A DNA stretch of 54,083 bases from Blastocatellia bacterium (GTDB taxonomy: Bacteria; Acidobacteriota; Blastocatellia; RBC074), in assembly GCA_043719385.1 (NCBI GenBank), contig JAYSTY010000534.1, positions 1 through 54,083 on the forward strand, in the 5' to 3' direction. Under the pieces are notes generated by a model that did no database searches, was not told where the DNA came from, and saw nothing but the letters and a program-made list of their open reading frames with translations. The translations under genes and the position numbers were made by a program. Shown here one piece after another: positions 38,491-54,083 of this stretch (its first letter is position 1; each line of letters starts with the position of its first letter).

Positions 38491-40242
38491 ATGAGTAAGT
38501 TTTCTACTATTTTTTTTAATCAGGCAATTATCGTGTCTTGTCTGGGGCTTTCTTTGACCTGTTCAACTTTCGCACAGGATCGTAGTACTGCAAATACTTC
38601 AGCCGGAATCCCCATCGAAATTCAACAACGCAACGACGAAATCCAAAAAATTATTGAGCGCTCGGCGGATGCTTTTCAAAAAGGCGAAGAGCTTTTTAAG
38701 GCGGGAGAATACGCTCAGGCGCGGCGCAGCTATGATCGTGCCGTTGATATTATTTTAGAATTTAATGTTGACGTTCGTCGTGATGCCCGGCTCAAACAAC
38801 ATTATCAAAAATTGCTTGACGGGATTAACCTGCGCCAGGCAATGCTGGCGCAACAATTGCCCGCGCCGCTGCCGTTATCGGCTGAGGCAAAGGACGAATT
38901 GACGGATGCGCAATCCGCTCAGCTTACCAAACAAGGGCAGAAGGGAACCGGAAAAAATCCTGGTGATCCAAATTACGCTCCTTCTCCACTTGATGAAGTC
39001 TCGAAACTTAATTTGACCGAGGACGAAAGAAAAGCGACGGAAGCAGAGGCGAAAGCAGCGTTGGAAGCGGCGCGAGTGGACTTTGGCTTTAAGCCAAATG
39101 CTTTGGTGCAAAGCTGGATCAATTATTATCAGGGACGTGGGCGTTCGACGATGGAAGTCGGAATTCGCCGCTCTGGCAAATATTTAAGCAAAGTGCGCCG
39201 CATCTTCAAAGAAGAGGGCGTGCCACAGGATTTAGCGTGGCTTGGACAAGTTGAAAGCGCCTGGTTGCCACACGCTCGTTCATGGGCGGCGGCGGTTGGT
39301 CTCTGGCAATTTATTCCAGGAACTGGTGCGCGGTTCGGGCTGCGCCAGGATTACTGGATTGATGAGCGCTCAAGTTTTGAAAAAGCGACTCGTGCCTCGG
39401 CTCGTTATTTGAAATTTTTAGCCAATCGTTATGCGGGGAACTGGGAACTGGCAATGGCCGCCTATAACAGCGGCGAAGGCAATGTGGATCGTGCGATTGC
39501 GCGTTCGGGCTATGCTGATTTCTGGGAAATTTATCAACGCGGCTTGTTACCGAACGAAACCAGAAATTACGTCCCAAACATTTTGGCAACCATCATCATC
39601 TCTAAAAGCCCGGAGCGTTATGGTTTTAGTGTGAAGCAGGATGCTCCCGTCGGTTATGACACGGTGATGGTGAATAATTCGGTTGACCTGCGGCTGGCGG
39701 CTGAAGCCTGCGATACGAGCTACGAATATTTGGTTGAATTGAACCCTGAATTGAAACGGGCCATGACGCCACAGGGAATGTTGTACGGCTTGCGTGTCCC
39801 TGGTGGACGTGGCAAACAGCTTCAGGCCTGGCTCACGCGGATTCCTTCTGACAAGCGCAATTCCTGGCGGTTAATGACTGCACAAAATGGTGATTCGTTT
39901 ACAACGATTGCCAAACGTGCCGGTGTTTCCGAAGCAACTCTTTCCGCTATTAATGGTGGAGTCGAGCCAAAGGGTGGGCAAAAAATCATTATTCCAGTTG
40001 GTAGTAATGTTCGTACCGTCGCTTCCGTTGCTCCCAAAGGTGCGATGACTTCAACCAGTTCTGCTGTTGGTGGTGGTTATACAAAAGTGATTGTGTACAC
40101 GGCGAAGAGTAACGAAACTCTCAGCGACATCGCGGCTCGTTATGGTTCATCGGCGAAAGACATTGCGGCGCTCAATCGTTTGAGTGCAACTACCTCCCTG
40201 CGTGCCGGCCAAATTTTGAAAGTGCCAACGCGCAGCAAATAG
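38491..40242 (+). CDS. MltD-like lytic murein transglycosylase with LysM domains
   Basis: QVES (catalytic Glu), A.GLWQFIPGTG, AAYNSGEG and ETRNYVP motifs; two C-terminal LysM repeats. Confidence 0.92.
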   Translation: MSKFSTIFFNQAIIVSCLGLSLTCSTFAQDRSTANTSAGIPIEIQQRNDEIQKIIERSADAFQKGEELFKAGEYAQARRSYDRAVDIILEFNVDVRRDARLKQHYQKLLDGINLRQAMLAQQLPAPLPLSAEAKDELTDAQSAQLTKQGQKGTGKNPGDPNYAPSPLDEVSKLNLTEDERKATEAEAKAALEAARVDFGFKPNALVQSWINYYQGRGRSTMEVGIRRSGKYLSKVRRIFKEEGVPQDLAWLGQVESAWLPHARSWAAAVGLWQFIPGTGARFGLRQDYWIDERSSFEKATRASARYLKFLANRYAGNWELAMAAYNSGEGNVDRAIARSGYADFWEIYQRGLLPNETRNYVPNILATIIISKSPERYGFSVKQDAPVGYDTVMVNNSVDLRLAAEACDTSYEYLVELNPELKRAMTPQGMLYGLRVPGGRGKQLQAWLTRIPSDKRNSWRLMTAQNGDSFTTIAKRAGVSEATLSAINGGVEPKGGQKIIIPVGSNVRTVASVAPKGAMTSTSSAVGGGYTKVIVYTAKSNETLSDIAARYGSSAKDIAALNRLSATTSLRAGQILKVPTRSK

Positions 40243-40416: not shown

Positions 40417-41964
40417 TTGCTCTTCAAAACGCTTAGCGCAGCAGTTTACGGAATTGATGCCCAACTTGTCGAGGTTGAAGTTGATTTGACCCCGCGCCCT
40501 GGCGATTCACAAAACGATACGGCTGTGATTGTTGTCGGCTTACCTGATTTAGCTGTCCGCGAAAGCCGCGAACGAATCCGTGCGGCGATTACCAACAGCG
40601 GACTTTTTTTTCCCGTTTATAAAACGACCATTAATCTTGCACCAGCCGATGTGAAAAAAGAAGGCTCGGCGTTTGACCTGCCCATTGCCATCGGGATTCT
40701 GGGTGCTAACGGCGATCTCCAGCGCGAAGATTTAGGTGATACTTTGCTGGTTGGTGAACTTGCTCTTGATGGTCGTGTGCGAGCGATTCGCGGTGCTTTG
40801 CCAATAGCTGTTGCCGCCAAACGGAATAACCTCAAGCGCCTGATTTTGCCTGCTGAAAATGCCCGCGAAGCTGCCGTCGTCAACGGTCTGGATGTTTATG
40901 CCGTGAGTGATTTGCGCGAAGTGATTGATTTGCTGAATGCCGAGACAATGCCAGAGCCGCTGAAAATTGATACTGAAGCTCTGTTGAGTGAAGCAGATCG
41001 CTACCCGATTGATTTTAGTGAAGTCCGGGGACAATTCAGTGCCAAGCGCGCGATTGAAATTGCGACCTCGGGGGGGCACAATATTTTGATGATTGGGCCG
41101 CCGGGATCAGGCAAGACCATGCTTGCCAAACGTGTCCCCACGATTTTGCCTCCGATCACTTTTGATGAGGCGTTAGAGACCACAAAAATTCATAGCGTGA
41201 CCGGATTATCTGATTCGCATGGCTTAGTGCGCCAGCGTCCTTTTCGCTCGCCGCATCACACGATTTCCGATGCCGGGTTAATCGGTGGCGGCGCGATTCC
41301 AAGACCTGGCGAAGTCTCGTTAGCCCATAACGGCGTTTTATTTCTCGACGAGCTGCCAGAGTTTGAGCGCAACGTTTTGGAAGTTTTACGGCAGCCGCTC
41401 GAAGATCATAAAGTGACGATCAGTCGGGCGGCGATGTCGCTGACCTTTCCGTCAAGTTTTATGCTCGTCGCCGCGATGAACCCCTGTCCATGCGGTTTTT
41501 TCAATGATCCAACGCGTGATTGCAAATGTAGTCCGCCGCAAATCCAGCGCTACATTGCCAAAATTTCCGGGCCATTGCTGGACCGCATAGACATTCATAT
41601 TGATGTGCCAGCGGTCAAAGTCCGTGAGCTTTCCGAGGCCGAAGCCGCCGAAGGTTCCGCCGAAATTCGCGCACGCGTGAAGCAGGCGCGGCAGCTTCAG
41701 CAGGAACGCTACGCCGGAGAAAATGTTTTTTGCAATGCGCAAATGACGCCGCGTTTGTTGCGGAAATATTGTCAGTTGGAGGTGGCGACGCAAACGATGC
41801 TGGAACGTGCGATTACGAAATATGGCTTGTCGGCGCGGGCGTATGACCGGATTCTGAAAGTCAGTCGCACCATCGCTGATTTGGAAGGAGTCGAGCAGGT
41901 CAGCGGCGATCATATCGCCGAAGCCGTGAATTTCAGGACGCTGGATCGCAATTATTGGCAATGA
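40417..41964 (+). CDS. comM: YifB/ComM Mg-chelatase-like AAA+ ATPase
   Basis: [59 protein letters not shown] and NPCPCG motifs; GGAGG RBS before TTG start. Confidence 0.93.
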
Positions 41965-41989
41965 GTATCCGCCATCTTACTCACTCACT

Positions 41990-43179
41990 TCATTCTGTGA
42001 CGAACAGGCTCGACACCTGCTGGTAGGTTGAATAGAGATAAGCTTGCTGATCGTCAGAAATAAAGATCGGGACGAGGGAAATTATCCCAACGCGACTGGG
42101 AGGTGCCATCGCTTTAAAAAATTCGCGGCGTCCGGTAGCGACATCAACCCGTTCGACGCGACAGGGAATATCGCGTCCGCGATAGACGAACCAGGCACGC
42201 CCCTCGCCGCTCCATTGCACGACGTTATCCTCTGCCGTCAGCCAGAGCTGTCTTCAGTAAATAAAACCATGCGTCCGTCCTGTGATAGCGCTTTGGATTT
42301 TGAGGTTCTGAGCCATGAAAGATGAATATCCTCAGTAGTGTTGGGTGGTACACCAGGCGTATGCACCATCGCGGTATAACGATAATCCAGGCGATTCACC
42401 AGCCATCTTCCACTATTGGCATCCGGCGCGACCGCCTGCAGCATTAACCCGCCTGGCGCTTGCTCGGCGATGCGCCGCACACCTGCCAGCGTCACGGCGA
42501 AGATTACGAAATCGCCGCCGCTCAGGCTGGCGGAGAACATGACTTCTTTGCCATCTGGTGACCAGGCCAGGCCGCGCTCGCTCCAATAACCATCGCTCAG
42601 CATGGTTTTTTGGCCTTTCAGATCAACCACGCTGACCGCGCCTTTGTCATCAAGTTTTTTCGGGTGATCGAAAAACGCGATGCGTGTGCCGTCGGGCGAA
42701 AAACGCGGATCGGTCAACATGCCGCTGATTTCATACAGTACGTTGCCGATGGGGTACTTTTTCGCCGACTTCACGAATGATAGCGAGTTGCGAACCATCG
42801 GGCGACCAGGCCGCGTGTTTGACGTTTTCGAGTAGCTCGCGGGGCGAACCACCAACCAGCGGCATCCGTGCCAGCGTTCCGCTGAACGTTCTGAAACGCT
42901 GCCAGAAAGAATCTTATAGTAACTGATCTGTTTACCTGAAGCAGAAGCTCCAGCAGGCACAGGCTGATTTTGTGCGAGGAGCGTGGCGGCAACGCCGATT
43001 GCCGGACGCGAGAGAAATTCTGCGGACTCGACGTGATTTGCCAGCAGCTTTTCAACTTCAGCACGCAAGGCCATATCGGCGCTGCAAGCCTGCGCCAGAA
43101 ACGCCGCGCGCTGTTCGGGGGCGAGTTCCAGCGCTGCATCAAAAAGCTGACCAATGCGTTGGTAGCGTTCAGGGGTCAT
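41990..43179 (-). pseudogene. Decayed membrane Ser/Thr kinase (kinase domain and TM deleted; PD40 propeller fragments in several frames)
   Basis: Starts MTPERYQRIGQLF...GKQISYYKILS like the intact kinase at 54001, then breaks before the Gly-rich loop. An alternative frame gives GTLARMPLVGGSPRELLENVKHAAWSPDG. The original frame resumes at YPIGNVLYE and stops at 42238. The C-terminus (QWSGEG...SSLFVTE) is in a separate ORF, 41990-42220. Confidence 0.9.
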
Positions 43180-43748
43180 GAAATTGCACTCAATTGTTGA
43201 TGTAACCAGGCCTGTGCCATCCGCCAGTCGCGTCGCACAGTACTGAGGGAAACCTTCATTACTTCGGCAACTTCCTCAAGGCTCAGTCCGCCAAAGAAAC
43301 GCAACTCAACAGTCCGAGCCTGACGCGGATCAAGTTTTTCCAGGGTTGTCAGCGCATCATCAAGCGCTACAAGATCGGGATTGTTCTGCGTACTGACGGT
43401 AGTAGCATCGGTAAGAGAAACCTGGATAGCCTGACCGCCGCGTTTCGTGGCTTGTTGTTCGCGGGCAAATTGCACCAGAATATGTCGCATCAGTGTCGCT
43501 GAAACGCCAAAAAAATGCGCACGGTTTTGCCACTCGACCTGCTGCCAATCAATCAGTCGCACAAAAGCTTCGTTGACTAACGCCGTAGTTTGCAATACAT
43601 GCCCACGCCGCTCGCCTGCCAGATAACCGTGCGCCAGACGATGCAATTCGCGGTACACCAGCGGCGTGAGTTGTGCCAGCGCATCCTGATCTCCATGGTT
43701 CCAGGCGACCAGTAATTGCGTGATGTTTGGGGGGGTGGGGAGGTTCAT
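43176..43748 (-). CDS. ECF sigma factor, TIGR02999 / kinase-associated (ECF43-like) type
   Basis: ITQLL.AW..GD..AL..L.PLVY.EL, LQTTALVNEA, W.NRAHFF, LDDAL..L...DPRQ..VELRFFGGL and DW..A.AWL motifs. The stop overlaps the kinase start (ATGA). Confidence 0.95.
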   Translation of the reverse strand: MNLPTPPNITQLLVAWNHGDQDALAQLTPLVYRELHRLAHGYLAGERRGHVLQTTALVNEAFVRLIDWQQVEWQNRAHFFGVSATLMRHILVQFAREQQATKRGGQAIQVSLTDATTVSTQNNPDLVALDDALTTLEKLDPRQARTVELRFFGGLSLEEVAEVMKVSLSTVRRDWRMAQAWLHQQLSAIS

Positions 43749-43845
43749 AATTTCACAGTTCGCTACAGCAACTACCTGGCTAATTTATCACATCAGACTA
43801 CGCTCAGCCATCACCCTGTTTTCTGGCAATTATTTTTTGCCCCCA

Positions 43846-43875
43846 TGAGCACTTTTGCCTGCCAATTCCCCCTTA
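43846..43875 (+). promoter_or_regulatory. Repeated 30-bp motif, copy 1 (candidate ECF promoter)
   Basis: tgagcacttttgcctgccaattccccctta, preceded by an A/T tract and divergent from the sigma gene. Confidence 0.7.
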
Positions 43876-44162
43876 TCCAATGAGAGTAAGAAATAACAAC
43901 CATGAATTTTCTTTGCAAAGGATGAGGGGCTTTGCTTTTGTCTTACGCTTTACCCATTAGAAGGAGAGCGAACGCACAATTCACCGCTCTCGTTAGAGCT
44001 AAAAACAACGCCAGATTTTCAAAGGAAAATTATGACGACATCATATGACGACATCAATGGAAGCAGCATAAATTATTGGGCGGCTGTTGCTTGAAACGAG
44101 TGGGGCAACAGTCACAGAGCCTTTTTGCTTTGACACTCACTTGAACAAAACAGGAGAAAGTT

Positions 44163-44618
44163 ATGAAACCTAATCGCTTTGTTATCGCTTCGCTCGTCGC
44201 CCTTGTGCTGACGTTGAGCGTCGTTGTTTTCGCACAAGTCAGTCGCCCGTATCGCAACGGCTCGGCATGGAACATCGGCTATATCCGCATGAAGCCTGGC
44301 ATGGAATCGGCTTATTTGAGCTACCTTGCCGGCGACTGGAAACGCGAGCAGGAAGCATTGAAAAAAGACGGGCAAATTCTTTCCTATAAAATTATCCAGA
44401 CCGAAGCACACGGCACAACTGATTTTAATTTGATGATCATGACCGAATACAAAGACCTGGCAACGCGGGAAGCCAATGAAGCTAAAGCCGACGTACTGTT
44501 ACAAAAAGTCATCGGTGATGACGATAAGCAAAGACAAGGCTATCGGGAACGGCTTGAGATTCGGGAAGTCCTGGCCAACCGACTTGGCAGAGAAATAGTT
44601 CTTGAACCCAAACGGTAA
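44163..44618 (+). CDS. Exported uncharacterised protein (possible dimeric alpha-beta barrel)
   Basis: CAGGAG RBS; signal peptide ending VFA-Q; IRMKPGM..AYL.YL...WK...EALKK.G.ILSYK. Confidence 0.8.
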   Translation: MKPNRFVIASLVALVLTLSVVVFAQVSRPYRNGSAWNIGYIRMKPGMESAYLSYLAGDWKREQEALKKDGQILSYKIIQTEAHGTTDFNLMIMTEYKDLATREANEAKADVLLQKVIGDDDKQRQGYRERLEIREVLANRLGREIVLEPKR

Positions 44619-44654
44619 TACTTTTTCAGCGGCGTGAACCACTACGTCGCCGCG

Positions 44655-44690
44655 AAGGCCGCGCAACCTGTTGAAGTTGCGCGACCTTTT
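44655..44690 (+). terminator. Probable intrinsic terminator
   Basis: aaggccgcgcaac-loop-gttgcgcgacctttt. Confidence 0.6.
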
Positions 44691-44768
44691 CTAAAGAGGA
44701 ATTGAAATGGCACATCAATGCTGTCTCAACCATCGGACAAGGCGTGCTGAAAATATTTTTTTGCGGCA

Positions 44769-44798
44769 TGAACACTTTTGCCCGCCAATTTCCCCTTA
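44769..44798 (+). promoter_or_regulatory. Repeated 30-bp motif, copy 2 (candidate ECF promoter)
   Basis: tgaacacttttgcccgccaatttcccctta, preceded by aaatattttttt, 90 nt before ATG 44889. Confidence 0.7.
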
Positions 44799-44888
44799 CA
44801 TATTAAGAGCAATCGTAACGCAGCAGTTCAGAGAAGAGCGTGACGTTTTGCCCGATTTTTTACATCACAAAAGGAGAAAAACAAAGTT

Positions 44889-45314
44889 ATGAAAACATTT
44901 GACAAAATTATTCGTCTTTCAGCCGCCCTCGCCATTGCGATGGCAGTGTTCCTGACCGGATTGAGCGCACGCACTGAGGCGCACCCGGCCAGCAAAATCC
45001 TGGCTTTCTCGAACGTCGAGAAGCACGTTCATATCAAGGTTGAAATTCACGGAGATATTGACGGTCATACAGCGGAATCGGTCGAGCATCTGATTGCCGA
45101 ATGGCTGGAAGCCGCGAAGCTTGTGGTTGAGCATACAGCGGGTGCGAATGCGCTCGAACTGCATGTGGTTTTGAATGTAACGGACAATCATCATTTCACC
45201 ATTCATGAAGATTGCGGCGATTGGCACGAAGAAAAAGAAGCAGCCGTGCTGGATGCCATTGATGACATCCTCCATCACATGACCGAGGATTTTATTGAGA
45301 AATTCAGTCATTAA
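44889..45314 (+). CDS. Exported His/acidic-rich small protein
   Basis: AAAAGGAG RBS; signal peptide; 15 His in 141 aa by hand count. Confidence 0.8.
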   Translation: MKTFDKIIRLSAALAIAMAVFLTGLSARTEAHPASKILAFSNVEKHVHIKVEIHGDIDGHTAESVEHLIAEWLEAAKLVVEHTAGANALELHVVLNVTDNHHFTIHEDCGDWHEEKEAAVLDAIDDILHHMTEDFIEKFSH

Positions 45315-45411
45315 TCAGCGGCTTTTCCCAGCAGTAAACCCCGTACCAGCAGCCCTCCCAGAATGCCGGGACATAGATAGGTGGCTGCCCATAACGACAA
45401 GGAGATAAGTA

Positions 45412-46026
45412 ATGAAAAGCCTGAAAACAGTTTTAGGTTGCGTGATCGCACTGGCGGTGATTGCCATGTGCGGTTCCGTAACCAGCCCGCTGAGCGCGAA
45501 ATCGGTGAATGCTCTGCCGCAGCAAAAGAAGCCGCCCGCCTCAAAGGTAGTGCCACATCCCGAAAATTGGATCACGTTGACGGATAAAAAAAAGGGTTAT
45601 TCCTTTGACGTGCCGCAAGGGACAGTAAGCGGCACCCAGAAATCCAGCGAACTGGATTTATTCATGGCTGTACCTCCTGAACCCTACGCTGTCGGAGTGT
45701 TAGTGATGGCCTTCAAAGACCCGAAATTATCGAAGGACGACCTGATAAATTTCGCCACAGGTGCGATGGACGGTATGAATGTCAAGAACTTCAAAGTCGT
45801 AGACGTGGTCGAATTGAGCGACGATTACAGTTTAGGGACATACACCGCGCTCAATAAGGAAGGAAAACCGATTAGAGGCAAAGTGCTGGTCGCCACGGAT
45901 GTCACCGACAACTACGTGATGATCGTCGGAACTGAAGTAAGCAAGTACAAAGCGAACGAAGAAATCATAGATGAAATCTGGGGTAGCTTCACGATGCGCA
46001 GCGGCGGCGCAAGCGGCAAGAGCTAA
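45412..46026 (+). CDS. Exported uncharacterised protein, paralog A (possible PsbP/DcrB-like fold)
   Basis: AAGGAG RBS; signal peptide; strong similarity to 46087..46737. Confidence 0.8.
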   Translation: MKSLKTVLGCVIALAVIAMCGSVTSPLSAKSVNALPQQKKPPASKVVPHPENWITLTDKKKGYSFDVPQGTVSGTQKSSELDLFMAVPPEPYAVGVLVMAFKDPKLSKDDLINFATGAMDGMNVKNFKVVDVVELSDDYSLGTYTALNKEGKPIRGKVLVATDVTDNYVMIVGTEVSKYKANEEIIDEIWGSFTMRSGGASGKS

Positions 46027-46086
46027 AACACTAATAATACAAGGCGGACAGTGATCGCCTTCAACCAATAACAGGGAGACTACGCA

Positions 46087-46737
46087 ATGAAAAACATAAA
46101 AGTAATTTTAGGTTGCCTGGCAGCGCTGACAATAATTTCACCAGGCTGTACCGTGACCACCAGTGGGAGTTTGAAAGGGAGTGCGACACCACCACCCACC
46201 ACTAAAGCCGAAACAAAGGCTGCACCAGCGGGAGCAAAGACGATCCCCGCCTCGAAGGTTGTGCCGGTTCCTGCGAACTGGATCACCATGGCTGATGACC
46301 TGAAAGGGTATTCTTTTGAAGTACCAGAAGGAACAGAGCGCAGCACCCAAAAATCCAATGGCATGGATATATTCCTGGCCTCAACCCCTGAACCGACCGC
46401 AGTCGGAATCATGGTGATGGCCTTCAAGGATCCGAAATTGACGAAAGATGACCTGGTCAAAGTTGCGACGGGCGGGCTTGAAGGGTTGGGCGCGAAGAAT
46501 ATCAAGATCGGCAGCCTGACTGAATTAAGTCCTGATTATAGCGTGGGGACGTATTCAGCAATCAATGAAGAAGGGAAGCCAGTCAAAGGCAAAGTGCTGG
46601 TGGCGACGGATATCAGTGATAACTATGTGATGGTGCTTGGAGCCGAAGAACCGGAATACAAAGCGAACGAGAAAATCATCGACGAAATTTGGGGGAGCTT
46701 CGCAATGCGCAGCGGCGGAGCCAGCGGCAAAAATTAG
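46087..46737 (+). CDS. Putative lipoprotein, paralog B
   Basis: Lipobox-like ISPG-C; shares PASKVVP.P.NWIT, VMAFKDPKL.KDDL, GKVLVATD and IIDEIWGSF.MRSGGASGK with paralog A. Confidence 0.8.
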   Translation: MKNIKVILGCLAALTIISPGCTVTTSGSLKGSATPPPTTKAETKAAPAGAKTIPASKVVPVPANWITMADDLKGYSFEVPEGTERSTQKSNGMDIFLASTPEPTAVGIMVMAFKDPKLTKDDLVKVATGGLEGLGAKNIKIGSLTELSPDYSVGTYSAINEEGKPVKGKVLVATDISDNYVMVLGAEEPEYKANEKIIDEIWGSFAMRSGGASGKN

Positions 46738-46739
46738 CA

Positions 46740-46800
46740 GAGGGCTGACTGCATCAGGGGAGTGTGCGCGTCGTGTCCTCACCCTGATGCAGTTGCCCTC
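46740..46800. other. Long intergenic stem-loop
   Basis: gagggc..actgcatcaggg pairs with ccctgatgcagt.gccctc; no U-tract follows. Confidence 0.55.
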
Positions 46801-46841
46801 TGAATTTAAACCTACGAAAAAAGCATTGAGGGGGATTACCA

Positions 46842-47663
46842 ATGAATCATTATTTCATTTCACGTCCAGCAGCGCTGACTTTTGCCGTACTTCTGATAAT
46901 AGGAGTTCTGGGAATTTACGCTTTGCCTTTTGCCGGAGCTGCCAGAGCGCAATCCAAACCAGCAGGCAAAGGCAGTTTCAAAGTTGGCTTCTCGCCGTTA
47001 AGTAAAAACAAAAATCTCAAATCAGCCATGAACGCCGAAGCTCGCAAAGCGCTGCAAGAACTGGCCGATGACATGAACAAGGTCTTCGCTCTGCCTCAGG
47101 ATCTTTATTTTACCGAAGCTACCTGCGGAGAAGCCAACGCGTTTTACGATCCAGACGCCAAACAAATCACCATGTGTATTGAGTTGATCAAGGATTTAGA
47201 GAAGAGCTTTGGCAAGGAATTCAAGGACAAACAGGAAGCAGCAGAAGCCGTAGAAGACGCTACATTGCTTATTTTCTTTCAAGAACTCGGTCATGCCCTG
47301 ATTGATCTTTACGATCTGCCGGTGACGGGAAAAGAGGAAGACGCCGTGGATCAACTCGCAGCCTTGATCGTGGCGGATGGCAGTCCCGAAGGCGCGGCAG
47401 CCGTCTTTAACGGAGCCTTGTCATTTGCGCTCGCCGCTGGCGATGGAGATTTGGATGAATCAGCTTTTTCGGATGAGCATTCGTTGAATCAACAACGCTT
47501 TTACAACCTTGTTTGCCTGCTTTATGGGCAAGACCCCAAGACGCATCAAGGATTAGTCAAAGAAAATGTCCTGCCCAAACAACGAGCGCAGCAATGCCCG
47601 TCCGAATACGACCGCGCCGATAAAGCCTGGAGTAAACTTTTGAGTCCACACCTCAAAAACTGA
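46842..47663 (+). CDS. DUF4344-like putative metallopeptidase with altered Zn motif
   Basis: CGEANAFYDP....ITMC.EL, ELGHALID..DLPVTGKEEDAVDQLA and DEHSL..QRFYN..C..YG motifs. HExxH reads QELGH here. Confidence 0.85.
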   Translation: MNHYFISRPAALTFAVLLIIGVLGIYALPFAGAARAQSKPAGKGSFKVGFSPLSKNKNLKSAMNAEARKALQELADDMNKVFALPQDLYFTEATCGEANAFYDPDAKQITMCIELIKDLEKSFGKEFKDKQEAAEAVEDATLLIFFQELGHALIDLYDLPVTGKEEDAVDQLAALIVADGSPEGAAAVFNGALSFALAAGDGDLDESAFSDEHSLNQQRFYNLVCLLYGQDPKTHQGLVKENVLPKQRAQQCPSEYDRADKAWSKLLSPHLKN

Positions 47664-47737
47664 GGAGACTCGTCAGTTTTTATTACCAGATAAGTTGAAA
47701 CAAGAACCCTTAAACTACCTGAAGGAAAAAAACAGAT

Positions 47738-48163
47738 ATGCAAACAAAACAATTTTATTTTACGCTTGGTATCATCTTCCTGCTCGCCGCTGGCTCGGCT
47801 TGTTCATTCAACGTCTCGACAGCCAATATGTCCAGCCTGAAACTGGGCAAGGAAAAACCTGTCAGCCAGGAAGTCAGCAACTTTGACCTCCACGATACCA
47901 TTTACGCCACTGCCGTCATCTCGAACAATCCCGGAGCGGTTAAAGTCAAAGGTCACATCATCATTGAGGATGTTGCCGGGCAAAAGCCAGGACCAATTCC
48001 AAGCCTGGAAATAATTGTGGAGATGACCAGTAGCGGAGACGCGAATTTCACCTTTACCCCGAATAATCCCTGGCCCGCTGGCAAATATAAATTTGAAGCC
48101 TTGATGCTGGATGAAAATGGCGAGCAAAAAGATCAGAAATCGGTACCGTTTACCATTTCCTGA
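47738..48163 (+). CDS. Putative lipoprotein, beta-sandwich-like
   Basis: Lipobox-like GSA-C followed by SFNVSTAN; WPAGKYKFE. Confidence 0.75.
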   Translation: MQTKQFYFTLGIIFLLAAGSACSFNVSTANMSSLKLGKEKPVSQEVSNFDLHDTIYATAVISNNPGAVKVKGHIIIEDVAGQKPGPIPSLEIIVEMTSSGDANFTFTPNNPWPAGKYKFEALMLDENGEQKDQKSVPFTIS

Positions 48164-48192
48164 TCCTGCATTTTCCAAATGGTTCGAGCGAG

Positions 48193-48232
48193 CGATGCAC
48201 AGGGATAGAGGCAACCCCCGGTGCATCGTTTT
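48193..48232 (+). terminator. Probable intrinsic terminator
   Basis: cgatgcac...gtgcatcg followed by tttt. Confidence 0.55.
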
Positions 48233-48413
48233 CTTCGTTGCAAATCAAGGGGGAACGAAATACTACAAACAGAAAGGATAATGAAATGTCACAAGCAGCA
48301 ACGGAACAACTCACCCGCATCATGCCGAGCGCTTGGCTAATAACGCGCCAAAATTAGTAACCGATTAACCGTGCTGCACCAGCAGCCCCAAACCCAACAA
48401 GGAGAATCGCATT

Positions 48414-48926
48414 ATGAAACGCATCTTAATCACCATCGCTCTGGCAGTCTTCGCACTATCATTCACCGCCTGCGCCACCAGCGACAATACTGGCGCCAAG
48501 ATCACGGCTGCTGTCGCAACTCCGGCGGCCTCAGTCGAAAGCTCTGCTGACATCGAAAAGGCCGTGACACAAATGGAGCGTGACTGGGAGGAAGCACTGA
48601 AAAATAAGGACAAGACCAAACTGGAAAGTCTCATCGCCGATGACTATGTCGGGATTGGCTGGGATGGCAAAACCTCTACGAAAGCCGAAAGCATCGCCAA
48701 TAGCATCGCGGCAGACACCAAACTTGATTCTTACACGCTTGATCCGGTAAAGGTGCGAGTCTACGGTGACGTTGCCATCGCCACTTCAGGCGACACGGAA
48801 AAGAGCAGTTTCAAAGGGAAAGATACGAGCGGTCGCTGGGTTTGGACGGATGTTTACGCGAAGCGCAATGGCCGCTGGCAGGCGGTCTCTTCGCACAGCG
48901 GACGTGTCCCGGAACCAAAAGCGTAA
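48414..48926 (+). CDS. NTF2-like DUF4440 lipoprotein
   Basis: Lipobox FTA-C; E.DW.EA...KD...LE.LIADDY, VRVYGDVAI and WTDVYAKRNGRWQAVSSH motifs. Confidence 0.88.
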   Translation: MKRILITIALAVFALSFTACATSDNTGAKITAAVATPAASVESSADIEKAVTQMERDWEEALKNKDKTKLESLIADDYVGIGWDGKTSTKAESIANSIAADTKLDSYTLDPVKVRVYGDVAIATSGDTEKSSFKGKDTSGRWVWTDVYAKRNGRWQAVSSHSGRVPEPKA

Positions 48927-49244
48927 CATCCGTAGTGACGATTCCGGTAGACGTAACAACTCCTTCTCGCCCCGTGCTCAGAATCGTGGGCAGACAACCG
49001 TCTTCCCGCCCGGTGTCGTGAACAACGCGTTTCGTGTGACGTTTGCGAATGCGGGCGCGTTTGCGGGGTGGACAATGAAAGGGCCGGATGGGATACTTCG
49101 CAGGGGTGTACCCTCGGTCTTATCACCGAGGCGCCCCAACCGTAACCTTCCAACTTGCGAGGTGTCATACCCCGTTTGAAGCTTTGGGTAGCGACACCTC
49201 GCAGCGCAAAGCAAGGGCAGTGAATAAAAATAATTTCTCTGCCG

Positions 49245-49274
49245 TGAACACTCTGGCACGCGAATTCCCCCTTA
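49245..49274 (+). promoter_or_regulatory. Repeated 30-bp motif, copy 3 (candidate ECF promoter)
   Basis: tgaacactctggcacgcgaattccccctta, preceded by aaaaataattt; same spacing as copies 1 and 2. Confidence 0.65.
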
Positions 49275-49476
49275 CCTCATGCAGGCGGGATTATGCGGCT
49301 TGCCAAAACCGAAAAAGCCTAAGTACAGCGAAAAGGAAGTTCTTTGATGATCTTATAGAGCCAGCATGCTCAATTCTCCCTTCTGTCTTCTCATCTCTTT
49401 CGCTGAAGATTTGAGCAGGCTGGGAAGGTCAAAGAACCTGGGGTTTCGTGTACTAGCAATAAATGAAAGGGTAACC

Positions 49477-50478
49477 ATGCAACGATCCAAGTTTTTTCTT
49501 TACCTGCTAGTGATCTCGCTCGCAAGCGCCCCGCTTACAGCGCTTGGGACACAACAAGTCGGCCCTCGAAAATACCTCATCAAACCGTTCAACCTGGGCA
49601 TCAGTACCGATGTCCGCGCCCGCTCGACACGAAATCTACAGGTCCGCGTAACAGATGAAAATGACCGACCCATCCCTGACGCGCAGGTATTATTCTTACT
49701 AAGCAGCGGTGGTACGGACAGCAGTAGTGTTGGTTCATTTGCCGGACAAACCTCCTTGCGCGCAATGACCAATGCAGAGGGCGTCGCGCAAGTGGATTAC
49801 ACGGCGGGAGAGACTGTTGGTAGTAAAGCCAGAATCAGGGCCCAGGTTGAGGGTTCCGATGCCGTTTTGGAAGTAGCACTACTCATCATCAGTGCGCTGA
49901 CCGGAGACTCGCCCCCTCAATCGTCCCCTCAATCGTCCCCTCAATCGTCCCCTCAATCGTCCCCTCAATCGTCCCCTCAAGTGGCTCCTCAAGCGGCATC
50001 GCAAAAGGAAATTCCATTTGTCAGCGGTCTGGCAATCGGGCAAATGCCAAAATCATCCGTCGCACATCAAACCTTTACAACGATTGGTGGAGATAAGGTC
50101 AGCCTGGATTCCAGGCGTGGCAAAATTATTGTTGTGGTCTTCTTCGGAACCTGGTGCCCCATCTCTAAGCAACAGTTCCAGGCGATGCCGAGTATCCTTG
50201 CGGAGGAAGTACAAGTGGTCGGAATGTCCGTCAAAGATCCCCGTGCAACGCCACAAATGTTGCTGCAATTTATGACTGAACAAAAGGTGAATTATCCGGT
50301 TGTCAAGGATGTCGAGGATAAGCATTTTATGAAATTTGTGGGTAACCAAAATGTGTCTGTCCCGCAAACAGTGATTTACGGTCGAGACGGTCGGATTATT
50401 GCGCATTTTCTGGGCTTTAACCAACAAGTCGGAGCCGAGATTGGGCAGAAAATCAAAGATGAATTAGTAAAAAAATAA
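49477..50478 (+). CDS. Exported fusion protein: Ig-like (Big-1-like) domain, PQSS linker, TlpA/redoxin domain
   Basis: Start re-assigned to MQRSKFFL (signal peptide); VRVTDENDRPI..AQVLF and TNAEGVA (Ig-like); SLDS.RGKIIVV.FFGTWCPIS and VPQTVIYGRDG (thioredoxin fold). Confidence 0.8.
   Translation: MQRSKFFLYLLVISLASAPLTALGTQQVGPRKYLIKPFNLGISTDVRARSTRNLQVRVTDENDRPIPDAQVLFLLSSGGTDSSSVGSFAGQTSLRAMTNAEGVAQVDYTAGETVGSKARIRAQVEGSDAVLEVALLIISALTGDSPPQSSPQSSPQSSPQSSPQSSPQVAPQAASQKEIPFVSGLAIGQMPKSSVAHQTFTTIGGDKVSLDSRRGKIIVVVFFGTWCPISKQQFQAMPSILAEEVQVVGMSVKDPRATPQMLLQFMTEQKVNYPVVKDVEDKHFMKFVGNQNVSVPQTVIYGRDGRIIAHFLGFNQQVGAEIGQKIKDELVKK
49909..49980 (+). repeat. In-frame 12-bp tandem repeat
   Basis: (tcgtcccctcaa)x5 exact at 49921-49980, plus one variant at 49909-49920; encodes SSPQ units. 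Confidence 0.95.
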
Positions 50479-50558
50479 TATCGGACTGGCCGTGAATGGT
50501 CGTGACAGCCGCGCCGATAAATCCATGACAACGACCCCAAACAACAAGGAGAATTTTT

Positions 50559-50828
50559 ATGGCTAATTATATGGTTGTTCGTCACAAGGCGCGGGATTTT
50601 TCAGAATGGAAAATCGGCTATGAGACTCACGCTCCCGCCCGTACTGCCGCAGGCCTCACGGAAAAACATCTGCTGCGCAGTGCCGACGATCCGAACGAAG
50701 TGATCCTCGTTTTTGAAGCCGCCGACCTCGACCGTGCGAGAGCCTTTGCCGCTTCTGATGATTTGAAAGAAGCCATGCAAAAAGTCGGGGTCGTAGATAA
50801 ACCGGACATCTATTTTCTCACTAATTGA
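50559..50828 (+). CDS. Small dimeric alpha-beta barrel (ABM/cyclase-like) protein
   Basis: AAGGAG RBS; VRHK..DF..WK.GY and DDPNEV..VFE..D...ARAF..S..LKEAM..GV...P motifs. Confidence 0.8.
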   Translation: MANYMVVRHKARDFSEWKIGYETHAPARTAAGLTEKHLLRSADDPNEVILVFEAADLDRARAFAASDDLKEAMQKVGVVDKPDIYFLTN

Positions 50829-51028
50829 CGCAGCTTCATAACAAAGGGTTAAGGCGTCCAATCTTGAAAAACGTGGCGGCGAAGCCTGCGCAGTTAGTGG
50901 CGTTGTTGTGATGGTTGTGACAGTCGTCGCTGATAAATTCACGCCTTGACGATTTTCGCGCTGGCCCTGTGTCTGGTTGATTATCGGAAGGCGGCGTGGC
51001 GTTGCAGTCAGGTAGCGCAGGCCGTGCT

Positions 51029-54001
51029 TCAACGAAAATTTTCCATCAGCATGAGTTCATCGTAGGGTTGTTCCAGATGGGCGAAGAGCAGACGGCGGCC
51101 ATCCGCTGACAGGGCTAACCCCGGCGCCCACCAGAGCGGCGCATCTGTAAGTGTAATCAGAGAAGTAGTGCGGCGCGTAGCAAAACTGAAAAAGCGAATC
51201 GCCCAGCGTGATTCGCTTTCCTTGGCGGCGAAGCAAATGCCTTCCTTCACCACCGTCCACGAACGCCAGTACCCCGCGTCTCTTAGTTCGGGCACGAGTG
51301 TTTCTTCGCCGCCGTTGACGGGAACCGAATAAATGCCATCGCCGCCGCGCGCTTTGGTGTAATAAAACAGCTTGCCATTGGGCGACTCAAAGCCCTCGAA
51401 GCCGCCCTTGAACGTGATCTGTTTAGCTTCACCACCGGCGGCGGGCATTTTATGAATCTGGTTGTTGCCGCTGCGGTTCGATTTGAAATAAAGCCATTGC
51501 CCGTCGCGCGACCAGGCGGGCAGGTTATCCGTCGTTTTCTCAAACGTCAGCCTACGCCAGACACTGTCACCTGCCGCGCTCATCACGTAAATGTCTCCAT
51601 CGCCGTTGGTGAAAGAATCAAAGGCGATCCATTTGCCGTCGTAAGACCAGCGTGGCGAGCCAGCCGAACCCGAGCGCGTGAGTTGGCGCGCGGCAGTCTT
51701 TCCCTCGGCGTCACACAGCCAGAGTTCTGGCAGGCCGGTGCGCTCTGAGGCAAAGACAATCGTTTGACCATCGGGAGAAAAAGACGGGCCCTGGTCTTCG
51801 TAAAGCGAAGAGTTGGGCAAGCGCACAGGCGCGCCGAATTTGCCCGGCACATCCCGCCCCGCGAAGCCTGCACCTTGATAGAGCCAGAGATTCGAATCGC
51901 TGGACAGTTCCGTCCAAACCAGTTTGTCACCCTGCCGCGAGATTTCAGGGTAGACGGGATTTTGTCCGTTGACCGGCACGCGCGTGGATGTGCCGCCTTG
52001 CGCGGAAATGCGCCAGAGGCCGCGCGTGTTGCGCCGAGTGGTGCTGAAAACGATTTCGCGGCTGTCACTGGTCCAGGCCAGTCCGGCGATTCGACTTTTC
52101 TCAAAGGTCAGTTGCCGCAGCGCGCCGTCGCCAAGCGAGATGACGCAAATATCTTTTTCGTTCGTGCCAAAATCGCGCGCGAAAGCCACCATCTTCCCAT
52201 CCGGTGAAAAGCGCGGGCTGTTATCGTTCATTGTTGGCATCGTTGGCTCCGGCGTGGTCAGGCGGGTGCGCTGGCCTGTTTCCGGCGTCACGAGAAAAAT
52301 GCCGCTGCGTTCGGCTGATCCGTGAAGTCCCGCCACCGCCAGCGTTTTGCCATCCGGCGACCAGGCTGGCGGGGTGGATGTTTCCGCCAGCTTCTGCTCT
52401 GGCCCGCCACTGGCCGACACCTGCAACACGTCGTTGCCGCGCACGAAGGTCACGTATTTGCCATCCGGCGTCCAACAGGGAGCAGAGCTACCGGCGGGTG
52501 CGGTCGTCAGCCGCAGCGGCGGCCCATCTGTGCCGATTACCTTGACGTAAATATCAGAGGGGCCGACTTCAGCGCCGCGTCCGCCATCCCACGCAAAAGC
52601 CAGGCGGCTTTCATCCGGCGAAAGCGCGGCAAAGTTTTTCTTGCCTGCCATACCGATCAGCGGCACGAATCTGGTTTCGGCGGCGGGTTGTTCCGCGGCA
52701 TGGTTGCGTGCAGTCAGCCAGCGATAACTGCCAACCCCTAACACGCTCGCCAACGCCAGCGCAGCAGCCAGCCATTTCAGACGATGCGCTCGCCACACCG
52801 ACAGTCCTGCCAATGGTTGAGTTGAATGGATGGGGACATCTATCTGTCCCGTCTCTTTGCGAATGCCTTGTGTTCCATTGTCGCGCGCAGCCGCGAATTG
52901 CAACGTAGACTGGTTTGCGATGTCATTCGTCGCACTCAGGTCGGCCAGATTGGCTTGCCCGAGTTCATCCAGGAAGGCGCGGATGTTTGGATAGCGTTGA
53001 TCGCGCTCTTTGGCGAGCATGCGGCTGATAATTTTTTGCAGCTTGTCAGGTGTGGGGGAAACGAACTGACACAGCGGTGGTGGTTCTTTTTCTAACAGCG
53101 CGGCAAACACTTCGGCGGTTGATACGCCTGAGAAGGCCTGTTCGCCCGTGATCATTTCATAAAACACGACACCCAGGCTGAACATATCCGTGCGCGCATC
53201 CACTTTCAACCCACGCGCCTGCTCCGGCGACATATAGCGCGGCGTACCCATCACGAGGCCTGCTTGCGTACTGTCATCAGTCTGTGAGCGCGTTTCAGCA
53301 AAGCGCGCCAGTCCGAAATCAAGCACTTTGACCAATCCGTCCGGGCGCAGCATGACGTTTTCGGGTTTGATGTCGCGGTGATAGATGCCTGCTTCGTGGG
53401 CGGTGTCGAGCGCCGCTGCGATTTGTTTGATGATGGCGAGCGCCTCTGGCAACGGCAGCCGTCCCACTGTCAGGCGCTGGCGCAAGGTCACGCCCGCAAT
53501 GAATTCCATCGCAATGAAATGAACGCGCTCGGCCTCGCCGATTTCATAAATCGTGATGATGTTCGGATGATTGGGAGCCGAGGCCGCGCGGGCTTCGCGC
53601 AGGAAGCGTTGTAATCGTTCAGTGCTTTGGGCGTCGTCCTGCGTGAATGCAGCGGGCAACAACTTAATCGCTACCTGACGTTCCAGCCGCGTATCGCGTG
53701 CCAGCCAGACTTCACCCATCCCGCCAGCGCCGAGCAACGAAAGAACTTGATAGTGGCTGATCTGTTGGCCTGCCGCCGGACTCTTTTGCGCCAACAGCGC
53801 GGCGGCCACTTCGAGCGCAGGCGCGGCAATGAAATCCTCTGCTTGCGCCTGCGCATCCGCCACCAGCAATTGCTCGACGGACTGTCGCAGCTCGTGGTCT
53901 TCGGCGCACGCACCCAACAGAAAAGCTCCGCGCTGCGTTGGCTCCAGGCTCACCGCCGTTTGATAAAGGTGACCGATTTGTTGGTAGCGTTCAGGAGTCA
54001 T
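51029..54001 (-). CDS. Membrane Hanks-type Ser/Thr kinase with extracytoplasmic PD40/TolB-like beta-propeller
   Basis: Probable start MTPERY (ATG 54001, coupled to the upstream sigma stop); LGAGGMGEV, VAIK, HRDIKPEN, DFGLA and GTPRYMSPEQ motifs; one TM helix; many [WF]SPDG repeats. Confidence 0.95.
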   Translation of the reverse strand: MTPERYQQIGHLYQTAVSLEPTQRGAFLLGACAEDHELRQSVEQLLVADAQAQAEDFIAAPALEVAAALLAQKSPAAGQQISHYQVLSLLGAGGMGEVWLARDTRLERQVAIKLLPAAFTQDDAQSTERLQRFLREARAASAPNHPNIITIYEIGEAERVHFIAMEFIAGVTLRQRLTVGRLPLPEALAIIKQIAAALDTAHEAGIYHRDIKPENVMLRPDGLVKVLDFGLARFAETRSQTDDSTQAGLVMGTPRYMSPEQARGLKVDARTDMFSLGVVFYEMITGEQAFSGVSTAEVFAALLEKEPPPLCQFVSPTPDKLQKIISRMLAKERDQRYPNIRAFLDELGQANLADLSATNDIANQSTLQFAAARDNGTQGIRKETGQIDVPIHSTQPLAGLSVWRAHRLKWLAAALALASVLGVGSYRWLTARNHAAEQPAAETRFVPLIGMAGKKNFAALSPDESRLAFAWDGGRGAEVGPSDIYVKVIGTDGPPLRLTTAPAGSSAPCWTPDGKYVTFVRGNDVLQVSASGGPEQKLAETSTPPAWSPDGKTLAVAGLHGSAERSGIFLVTPETGQRTRLTTPEPTMPTMNDNSPRFSPDGKMVAFARDFGTNEKDICVISLGDGALRQLTFEKSRIAGLAWTSDSREIVFSTTRRNTRGLWRISAQGGTSTRVPVNGQNPVYPEISRQGDKLVWTELSSDSNLWLYQGAGFAGRDVPGKFGAPVRLPNSSLYEDQGPSFSPDGQTIVFASERTGLPELWLCDAEGKTAARQLTRSGSAGSPRWSYDGKWIAFDSFTNGDGDIYVMSAAGDSVWRRLTFEKTTDNLPAWSRDGQWLYFKSNRSGNNQIHKMPAAGGEAKQITFKGGFEGFESPNGKLFYYTKARGGDGIYSVPVNGGEETLVPELRDAGYWRSWTVVKEGICFAAKESESRWAIRFFSFATRRTTSLITLTDAPLWWAPGLALSADGRRLLFAHLEQPYDELMLMENFR

Positions 54002-54083
54002 GATTGAGAGAGTTGCAGGTGAAGCCAGGCGCGTGCCTGACGCCAATCGCTATGCAATGTGCTGACAGAAACTTGCAGGATAG
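53998..54083 (-). CDS. 3' end of a second TIGR02999-type ECF sigma factor (partial; not in ORF track)
   Basis: The minus strand translates to ILQVSVSTLHSDWRQARAWLHLQLSQS*, matching VMKVSLSTVRRDWRMAQAWLHQQLSAIS* of the first sigma. Same ATGA overlap with the kinase start. Confidence 0.88.
   Translation of the reverse strand, partial: ILQVSVSTLHSDWRQARAWLHLQLSQS

Follow-up and report, generated by a model that had tools for sequence, protein, structure and literature searches.

Described systems and the locus compared with them

To our knowledge, work on modules that combine an extracytoplasmic function (ECF) sigma factor of group ECF43 with a kinase has been confined to a few proteobacteria. 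The locus described here, from an acidobacterial genome (Blastocatellia bacterium, GCA_043719385.1), is an ECF43-like sigma/Hanks-kinase system of the same kind as EcfK/PknS of Xanthomonas citri and EcfP/PknT of Vibrio parahaemolyticus. The window is the entire contig JAYSTY010000534.1 (54,083 nt), which belongs to an assembly of 557 contigs and 6.35 Mb with a completeness of 95.7%. The locus comprises an ECF43-type sigma factor gene (sigma 1), the remnant of a Hanks kinase gene coupled to it, nine plus-strand genes (the array) headed by three copies of a promoter-like motif, and an intact second kinase gene (kinase 2) coupled to a sigma fragment (sigma 2). Sigma 1 is probably a phosphorylation-dependent ECF43-type sigma factor that reads the three promoters of the array, which would be its whole detectable regulon, with kinase 2 and sigma 2 forming a separate module.

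According to two published papers, QTTA is the ECF43 consensus, and a threonine of region 2.2 is the phosphorylation site in EcfK and EcfP, where it replaces the acidic DAED through which other sigmas contact beta' (PMC13147305, PMC8999054). EcfP is described as intrinsically inactive without the acidic DAED and as activated by phosphorylation of the second threonine of STTA (PMC8999054). In the PknS paper, the N-terminal segment of PknS is stated only to be one that "may play a functional role".

The locus resembles EcfK/PknS in that a sigma gene adjoins a kinase gene and region 2.2 is uncharged and carries a threonine (PMC13147305). The N-terminal extension of approximately 83 residues before the kinase domain of PknS is matched by the N-domain profile of the window, and a TPR sensor, as in PknS, was found beside two sigma-1 orthologs. 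It differs from EcfK/PknS in output, which is a type VI secretion system in Xanthomonas and is predicted to be small exported proteins here, in that only a remnant of a kinase adjoins sigma 1, and in the region 2.2 motif (QATE in EcfK, QTTA in sigma 1); the sigma 1 system is also known from sequence alone. Sigma 1 carries TT at the place of the phospho-threonine of EcfP, whereas the EcfP regulon reportedly leads to polymyxin resistance and that of sigma 1 would consist of uncharacterised envelope proteins.

In the literature searched, no cognate promoter, regulon or output was described for acidobacterial ECF43-type modules. What the locus would add is predicted throughout: a conserved cognate promoter and regulon in Acidobacteria, a −10 split between paralog subgroups, a docking role of the kinase N-domain, and a kinase-less remnant of the partner.

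Sigma 1 and its orthologs

43176–43748, minus strand: sigma 1, a TIGR02999 (ECF43-type) sigma factor; QTTA occupies residues 53–56

Sigma 1 matched TIGR02999 with 215.5 bits (cut-off 126) and PF07638 with 192.4 bits (cut-off 21.1). Its region 2.2 reads HVLQTTALV, with T54/T55 and no acidic DAED motif; the LQTTALV segment had already been pointed out in an earlier reading of this DNA made without database searches (the sequence-only reading). QTTA was invariant in 19 of 19 aligned sigmas, and sigma 1 is intact, retaining 65 of the 65 positions that are invariant among them. Its earlier classification as ECF43-type is supported by the TIGR02999 score, the uncharged QTTA in region 2.2 and the kinase neighbors observed in relatives, as judged against the published descriptions.

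The genome (G000) holds 14 TIGR02999-type sigma genes, sigma 1 included. At ten of them, the next gene encodes a full kinase domain; three have none within 1.5 kb, and sigma 1 has a stub only. Up to approximately 18 close sigma paralogs were found in each of the acidobacterial genomes searched. Orthologs of sigma 1 were identified at 13 places in 11 genomes with 79–93% identity, clearly apart from paralogs at 69% or less. The relatives compared are kin, and genome counts overstate their independence; the unpublished G015 enters the tallies only as one motif-free genome.

A promoter-like motif unique to the array

43828–43889 (core 43846–43875), plus strand: motif copy 1, which diverges from sigma 1 (start codon 80 nt away); heads g1 through a leader of approximately 275 nt
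44751–44812 (core 44769–44798), plus strand: motif copy 2; heads g2–g7
49227–49288 (core 49245–49274), plus strand: motif copy 3; heads g8–g9
44660–44683, plus strand: terminator-like hairpin 3' of g1

The fixed-length motif that had been noticed three times in the array was recovered at these positions, all on the plus strand, and its recurrence was far beyond chance genome-wide. With one substitution allowed, the core TGARCAC-N16-CCCCTTA gave three matches on both strands of the 6.35-Mb assembly, all in the array. A 62-nt weight matrix scored the three copies at 66–78 bits and the next best genome site at 26 bits; the matrix was built from strict-pattern matches and its scores within the pattern are circular, which weakens the case that these numbers make for a promoter. 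None of the 13 other TIGR02999 sigma genes of the genome has such a site. The layout is bipartite, with a GAAC-type −35 element and a −10 element at fixed spacing, and the copies lie upstream of genes and are co-oriented with them. We infer that the motif is a promoter and that sigma 1 reads it.

Other readings of the region were also considered. A 61-aa open reading frame (ORF) at 44707–44892, within which motif copy 2 lies, is unlikely to be a real gene. A sigma-70 promoter scan returned six sites against 6.4 expected and was uninformative. A sigma-54 reading of copy 3 (CTGGCACGCGAATTCC) was rejected because copies 1 and 2 are without GG. An Rfam scan of 41900–54083 (E ≤ 1) gave a single chance-level snoRNA match (20 bits; gathering score 44).

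The leader that separates g1 from copy 1 (43890–44162) contains a 13-nt tandem duplication, ATGACGACATCAT then ATGACGACATCA. It is 78% identical to the corresponding leader of G003, a comparison of only two sequences from one genus that carries little weight.

GCGTTA is a common form of the ECF −10 element. Motif-like sites were observed elsewhere in the genome, at C175:2677–2738 and upstream of the sigma genes of C105, C417 and C241. All four have an A/T tract, a TGAGC-type −35 element and a 7+16+7 frame; the −10 element is GCGTTA in C175 and C417 and different in C105 and C241. A kinase gene is located close to the C175 site, and each of the remaining sites diverges from a paralog sigma gene. 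Judged by their layout, these sites may be paralog-specific promoters, and the same-layout sites at C175 and C417 support a family-wide promoter architecture.

Conservation of the motif with sigma 1 in related genomes

The strict motif was found in 12 of 24 same-family genomes and in none of 16 genomes from different families of the class, and a reversed-pattern control gave one match in 41 genomes. One of the 12 genomes (G019) looks like chance (5.4 bits). In a sample of the phylum, two of 300 other genomes had the strict motif (one with a true-looking spacer), compared with six control matches in 301. The flanks, which lie outside the search pattern, were conserved in 29 of 30 instances, with an A/T tract upstream and aaTGAgaGcaa downstream, and the consensus was aAAaatTtTTTt-N6-gTGAACACTTTTGC.cgC.aATTcCCCCTTAcC.aaTGAgaGcaa.

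A divergent motif of at least 45 bits was located 78–126 nt upstream of nine of the 13 sigma-1 orthologs, as in the window, and two more orthologs had versions of 29–31 bits at the same position. A strict motif that looks genuine was present in 11 genomes; nine of these have a sigma-1 ortholog, and the other two are assemblies of 1140 and 1450 contigs. At four loci of relatives, the motif precedes a PsbP-like/DUF4344/lipoprotein cassette corresponding to g3/g4–g5–g6; in G010, G011 and G007 this copy is away from any sigma-1 ortholog, and in G009 it adjoins one. In G003, the motif precedes an ortholog of g1 (80% identical), with a g7-like gene in the same unit. The motif tracks sigma-1 orthologs across relatives and array homologs are linked there to such modules, in agreement with the earlier suggestion that the array has its own promoter motif; the sequence-only reading had named a complete lack of such linkage as one finding that would refute it. 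The description of the locus as a self-contained island was not borne out, as its arrangement is specific to this genome and the motif copies of relatives are scattered over several contigs. These comparisons support the view that the array motif behaves as a sigma-1 promoter across relatives.

A second sigma subgroup, comprising five sigmas with 74–77% identity to sigma 1, was accompanied in five of five cases by a divergent variant motif, in which the shared TGAACACTTTTT is followed at −10 by CACATG instead of CCCCTTA. Both subgroups share the region 4.2 helix STVRRDWR and differ in residues of sigma-2 (e.g., W68 to A/T and T85 to H). The shared helix together with the sigma-2 changes would fit a shared −35 element and a different −10 element.

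Decay of the kinase gene coupled to sigma 1

42238–43179, minus strand: remnant of the Hanks kinase partner of sigma 1, a 313-aa ORF with PD40 propeller fragments, no kinase domain and no membrane segment
42904–43179, minus strand: N-terminal domain of 92 residues still present in the remnant, a predicted docking partner of sigma 1

The sequence-only reading had described two sigma–kinase pairs, each joined by an ATGA overlap. Both overlaps are real, at 43176–43179 between sigma 1 and the kinase remnant downstream of it and at 53998–54001 between sigma 2 and kinase 2, but the partner of sigma 1 is without a Pkinase domain and sigma 2 is represented by only 27 residues.

A Pfam scan of the 313-aa remnant retrieved PD40 only and no Pkinase domain. 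In BLASTP, residues 1–92 aligned at 57–69% identity with the N-termini of kinases that adjoin sigma-1 orthologs, and the alignment ends after residue 92, at the first kinase strand (ISYYKILS). Approximately 400 residues, which correspond to the kinase domain and the membrane segment, are deleted. A piece of the propeller at 42779–42880 is in another frame (BLASTP and tblastn), and weak similarity to the kinase persists beyond the stop codon of the remnant, to approximately 42193. Contigs from an independent study cover 41900–43424 (run X5) and 42696–43479 (run X6) with 0 differences, and because they span the deletion junction unchanged, the junction is not an artefact of this assembly. The kinase gene of sigma 1 has decayed in this genome, and only the docking-type domain survives in frame. 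The sequencing runs that carry this stretch are sediment and freshwater-sediment metagenomes.

In relatives, a gene with a kinase domain adjoins 10 of the 13 sigma-1 orthologs. No kinase gene was found within 4.2 kb of the ortholog in G010 or within 2.4 kb at L068, and L067 is cut by a contig end. The C-terminal sensors of these kinases were PD40 (L043, L064, L056 and L066), TPR (L065 and L046), DUF4384 (L069) and Guanylate_cyc (L054). Such differing sensors on a conserved sigma–promoter pair look like sensor swapping.

The kinase N-domain as a candidate sigma-docking domain

The N-domain of the remnant was 42–75% identical to the N-termini of 14 kinases, with all 16 invariant positions kept. 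A profile of 15 such N-domains matched residues 8–97 of PknS (PDB 9EED, PknS 1–364) with an E-value of 5.3e-7. In this genome, 12 of the 14 kinases with the N-domain are beside a TIGR02999 sigma gene, compared with 0 of the 17 kinases without the domain. The N-domain kinases with no adjacent sigma match, C552:988–2280 and C122:1454–2542, are candidate trans-acting kinases.

A complex of sigma 1 and the 92 residues of the remnant was modeled with an ipSAE of 0.75 (runs 0.76, 0.75 and 0.70), compared with 0.10 for the best control; for calibration, 58 of 80 solved complexes and 2 of 110 mismatched pairs attained that mark. At least 67% of contacts were common to the runs, and the pLDDT of the partner was at least 71. 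The predicted contacts of the N-domain fall on sigma 1 residues 31–43, 87–102 and 138–187, in both sigma-2 and sigma-4. The model supports binding between the N-domain and sigma 1 and does not show it. Several points count against a docking role: the alignments behind the complex model were shallow (19 and 15 rows), its score may reflect sigma/anti-sigma structures already solved, the isolated N-domain gave a weak model of four helices with a pLDDT of 68, and a fold search of the isolated domain against the PDB returned 0 matches at E ≤ 0.001.

In classical ECF sigma/anti-sigma pairs (e.g., RpoE–RseA), an anti-sigma domain clasps sigma-2 and sigma-4. The contacts predicted for the N-domain on sigma-2 and sigma-4 are similar, whereas the N-domain is fused to a kinase and not to a cleaved membrane anchor. 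Sequence and fold searches found no similarity of the N-domain to anti-sigma domains, and because the fold search gave none, the likeness comes only from the contacts of the complex model.

Orphan Hanks kinases with the N-domain and PD40 (L062:1935–4847, L055:7009–9936 and L045:2846–5782) were identified in three genomes of two genera and were 83–87% identical. Each diverges from a sigma-1-type motif, and no sigma gene intervenes; the best match to them in G000 was only 45% identical. Given this position, it is plausible that kinases act in trans on this sigma.

The array genes and the possibility of decay

Nine plus-strand genes were located within 44163–50828, as had been proposed, and all nine ORFs are open. 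Eight of the nine proteins have N-terminal K/R followed by a hydrophobic core, and four of these have a lipobox-like cysteine; this agrees with the eight signal or lipoprotein peptides counted earlier, the export calls being based only on a hydrophobicity heuristic.

44163–44618, plus strand: g1, 151-aa predicted exported protein; no Pfam/NCBIfam match at E ≤ 0.01
44889–45314, plus strand: g2, 141 aa, predicted exported and His-rich (15 His); no Pfam match above cut-off
45412–46026, plus strand: g3, PsbP-like lipoprotein; tandem paralog of g4
46087–46737, plus strand: g4, PsbP/Mog1-fold lipoprotein
46842–47663, plus strand: g5, predicted exported DUF4344 putative metallopeptidase (zincin-like)
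47738–48163, plus strand: g6, small lipoprotein; weak, sub-threshold Big_13 (Ig-like) match
48414–48926, plus strand: g7, DUF4440/SnoaL-like lipoprotein
49477–50478, plus strand: g8, predicted exported; Big_1-like domain, SPQS repeat linker and AhpC/TSA-type redoxin domain with a single cysteine (WCPIS)
50559–50828, plus strand: g9, 89 aa; no signal peptide; no Pfam match above cut-off

Cluster searches with g1 retrieved unnamed clusters only, and the homologs of one array protein were labeled Blastocatellia or Acidobacteriota. Pfam PsbP was matched by 25 of 30 homologs of g4, and the g4 model (pLDDT 79) had 2xb3 as its top PDB match (E 3.2e-6, TM 0.72). The g3/g4 region (45412–46737) is a tandem duplication with 68% nucleotide identity over 300 nt and a spacing of 711 nt. 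The (SPQS)n linker of g8 is encoded by a 12-nt tandem repeat at 49909–49992. On the 5' side of the locus, genes for an SLT/LysM lytic transglycosylase (38491–40242) and a ComM/Mg-chelatase-like ATPase (40417–41964) were observed, the latter converging on the kinase remnant.

Some features of the array are those expected if the module were a decaying, non-functional relic in this genome, with a sigma that cannot be activated and an array that is silent and eroding. In addition to the wrecked kinase gene, residues 147–151 of g5 read QELGH, compared with HELGH in five of five orthologs from relatives, so that the first histidine of the putative zinc motif has been lost in this genome. The two halves of g8 match separate genes in relatives, and no full-length match was found in 40 relatives, which makes this unusual fusion specific to this genome. 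A relic is nevertheless rather unlikely, in view of the intactness of sigma 1 at all 65 invariant positions, the nine open ORFs, the 16 of 16 invariant positions kept in the docking domain of the remnant, and the three array motifs, which score as high as those of relatives.

The second module at the contig end

51029–54001, minus strand: kinase 2, intact Hanks kinase; a docking-type N-domain and the kinase domain are accompanied by a hydrophobic segment and a PD40/TolB-like propeller region
53998–54083, minus strand: sigma 2 fragment, TIGR02999-like, truncated at the contig end with only the last 27 codons and stop remaining

Kinase 2 matched Pkinase (PF00069) with 161 bits, and HRDIKPEN, DFG and SPE motifs are present in its translation, as are PD40/TolB-like repeats. 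Its hydrophobic stretch (WLAAALALASVLGVG) is visible, although it falls below the 19-residue hydrophobicity threshold. The remainder of sigma 2 was searched for across the assembly and not found, and the 27 C-terminal residues gave no orthogroup assignment.

The sequence-only reading took both modules for one island, in which the propeller of kinase 2 senses a ligand and the kinase phosphorylates sigma 1 and/or sigma 2 and switches on the array. The array is physically bracketed by the two modules, and kinase 2 is intact, with a docking-type N-domain that is 53% identical to that of the remnant. Sigma 1 has no kinase of its own and would need a trans-acting one if phosphorylation is required, and the orphan N-domain kinases beside sigma-1-type motifs in relatives suggest that trans-acting kinases exist. 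However, the best relatives of kinase 2 (64–65% identity over ~1020 aa; L073 and L074, genomes G006 and G001) are beside sigmas of the other subgroup, and these loci have a motif with a different −10 element and no array homologs nearby. The helix of sigma 2 reads STLHSDWR, compared with STVRRDWR in sigma 1, which makes a shared reading of the −35 element doubtful, and bracketing by a second sigma–kinase pair was seen at 0 of the 13 sigma-1 ortholog loci. With the kinase of sigma 1 decayed as well, joint control of the array by two modules is unlikely.

The array is instead most likely the regulon of sigma 1, because sigmas of the kinase-2 type use a different −10 motif. The subgroup-2 motif was searched for in this assembly and not found, and this absence, together with the STLHSDWR helix, suggests that module 2 is a neighbor. 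Kinase 2 and sigma 2 would most simply be a separate paralogous module with its own targets beyond the contig end.

Weighing of the sigma 1 regulon and proposed mechanism

It is very unlikely that the motif serves a different DNA-binding regulator, acts as a leader RNA element or represents a repeated relic, travelling with sigma 1 only as its neighbor: its conservation does reach into the spacer (TTTTGC..GC.AATT) and 6–15 nt downstream (aaTGAgaGcaa), its −10 element is non-canonical and the leaders behind it are long, but its length is fixed, its −35 element is GAAC-type, it is always oriented upstream of same-strand genes, the same 7+16+7 layout with GCGTTA occurs near the C175 kinase and divergent from the C417 paralog sigma, copies are found far from the sigma in genomes that have a sigma-1 ortholog, and no Rfam family matches the motif region.

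Several observations weigh against sigma 1 as the phosphorylation-dependent reader of the array. CCCCTTA is not a textbook ECF −10 element, and copies 1 and 3 are approximately 275 and 200 nt from the start codons. The promoter identity of the motif is based on form and position, and in kin genomes the motif and the sigma could be co-inherited neighbors with no functional link. Two of the 13 sigma-1 orthologs are without a divergent motif, L065 having none and L069 a 37-bit copy downstream of the kinase. The closest relatives, G012 and G003, have a short, sensor-less kinase, and G010 has no kinase within 4.2 kb, which casts some doubt on whether sigma 1 relies on a kinase next to it. EcfK with the T51A substitution is reported to be still functional (PMC13147305).

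In the proposed mechanism, the cognate promoter of sigma 1 would consist of an A/T tract, TGAACAC (−35), 16 nt and CCCCTTA (−10), and the three promoters beside sigma 1 would drive g1, g2–g7 and g8–g9, which encode mostly envelope proteins. A membrane kinase of relatives would use its helical N-terminal domain of approximately 85 residues to dock on the sigma, and would then phosphorylate T55 and release the active sigma, which would fire a handful of private envelope-protein promoters. With the kinase domain and membrane segment of the sigma 1 partner gone, the regulon in this genome would be either silent or dependent on a different N-domain kinase that acts in trans, kinase 2 being the nearest candidate.

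Implications for ECF43-type regulation in Acidobacteria

We tentatively propose a wider view, which is possible without being the expected outcome. The N-terminal extension of approximately 85 residues in sigma-directed Hanks kinases, from PknS to those of these acidobacteria, would be a docking domain that clasps sigma-2 and sigma-4 in the manner of an anti-sigma, and such kinases would both hold and activate the sigma. Here, where a deletion has spared only the docking domain as a kinase-less partner translationally coupled to the sigma, the kinase-activated switch may have become a bound sigma. The family-wide private promoter TGAACAC-N16-CCCCTTA would be the first readable regulon of such a sigma in Acidobacteria, and paralog specificity would be set at the −10 element through changes in a sigma-2 loop.

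A genome-unique, family-conserved promoter tied to one sigma orthogroup constitutes a directly testable regulon, and the paralog pair with the same −35 and different −10 elements offers natural material for the study of promoter specificity. The predicted docking role bears on the open point about the N-terminal segment of PknS. The kinase-less remnant amounts to a natural experiment on the need of a sigma for its own kinase.

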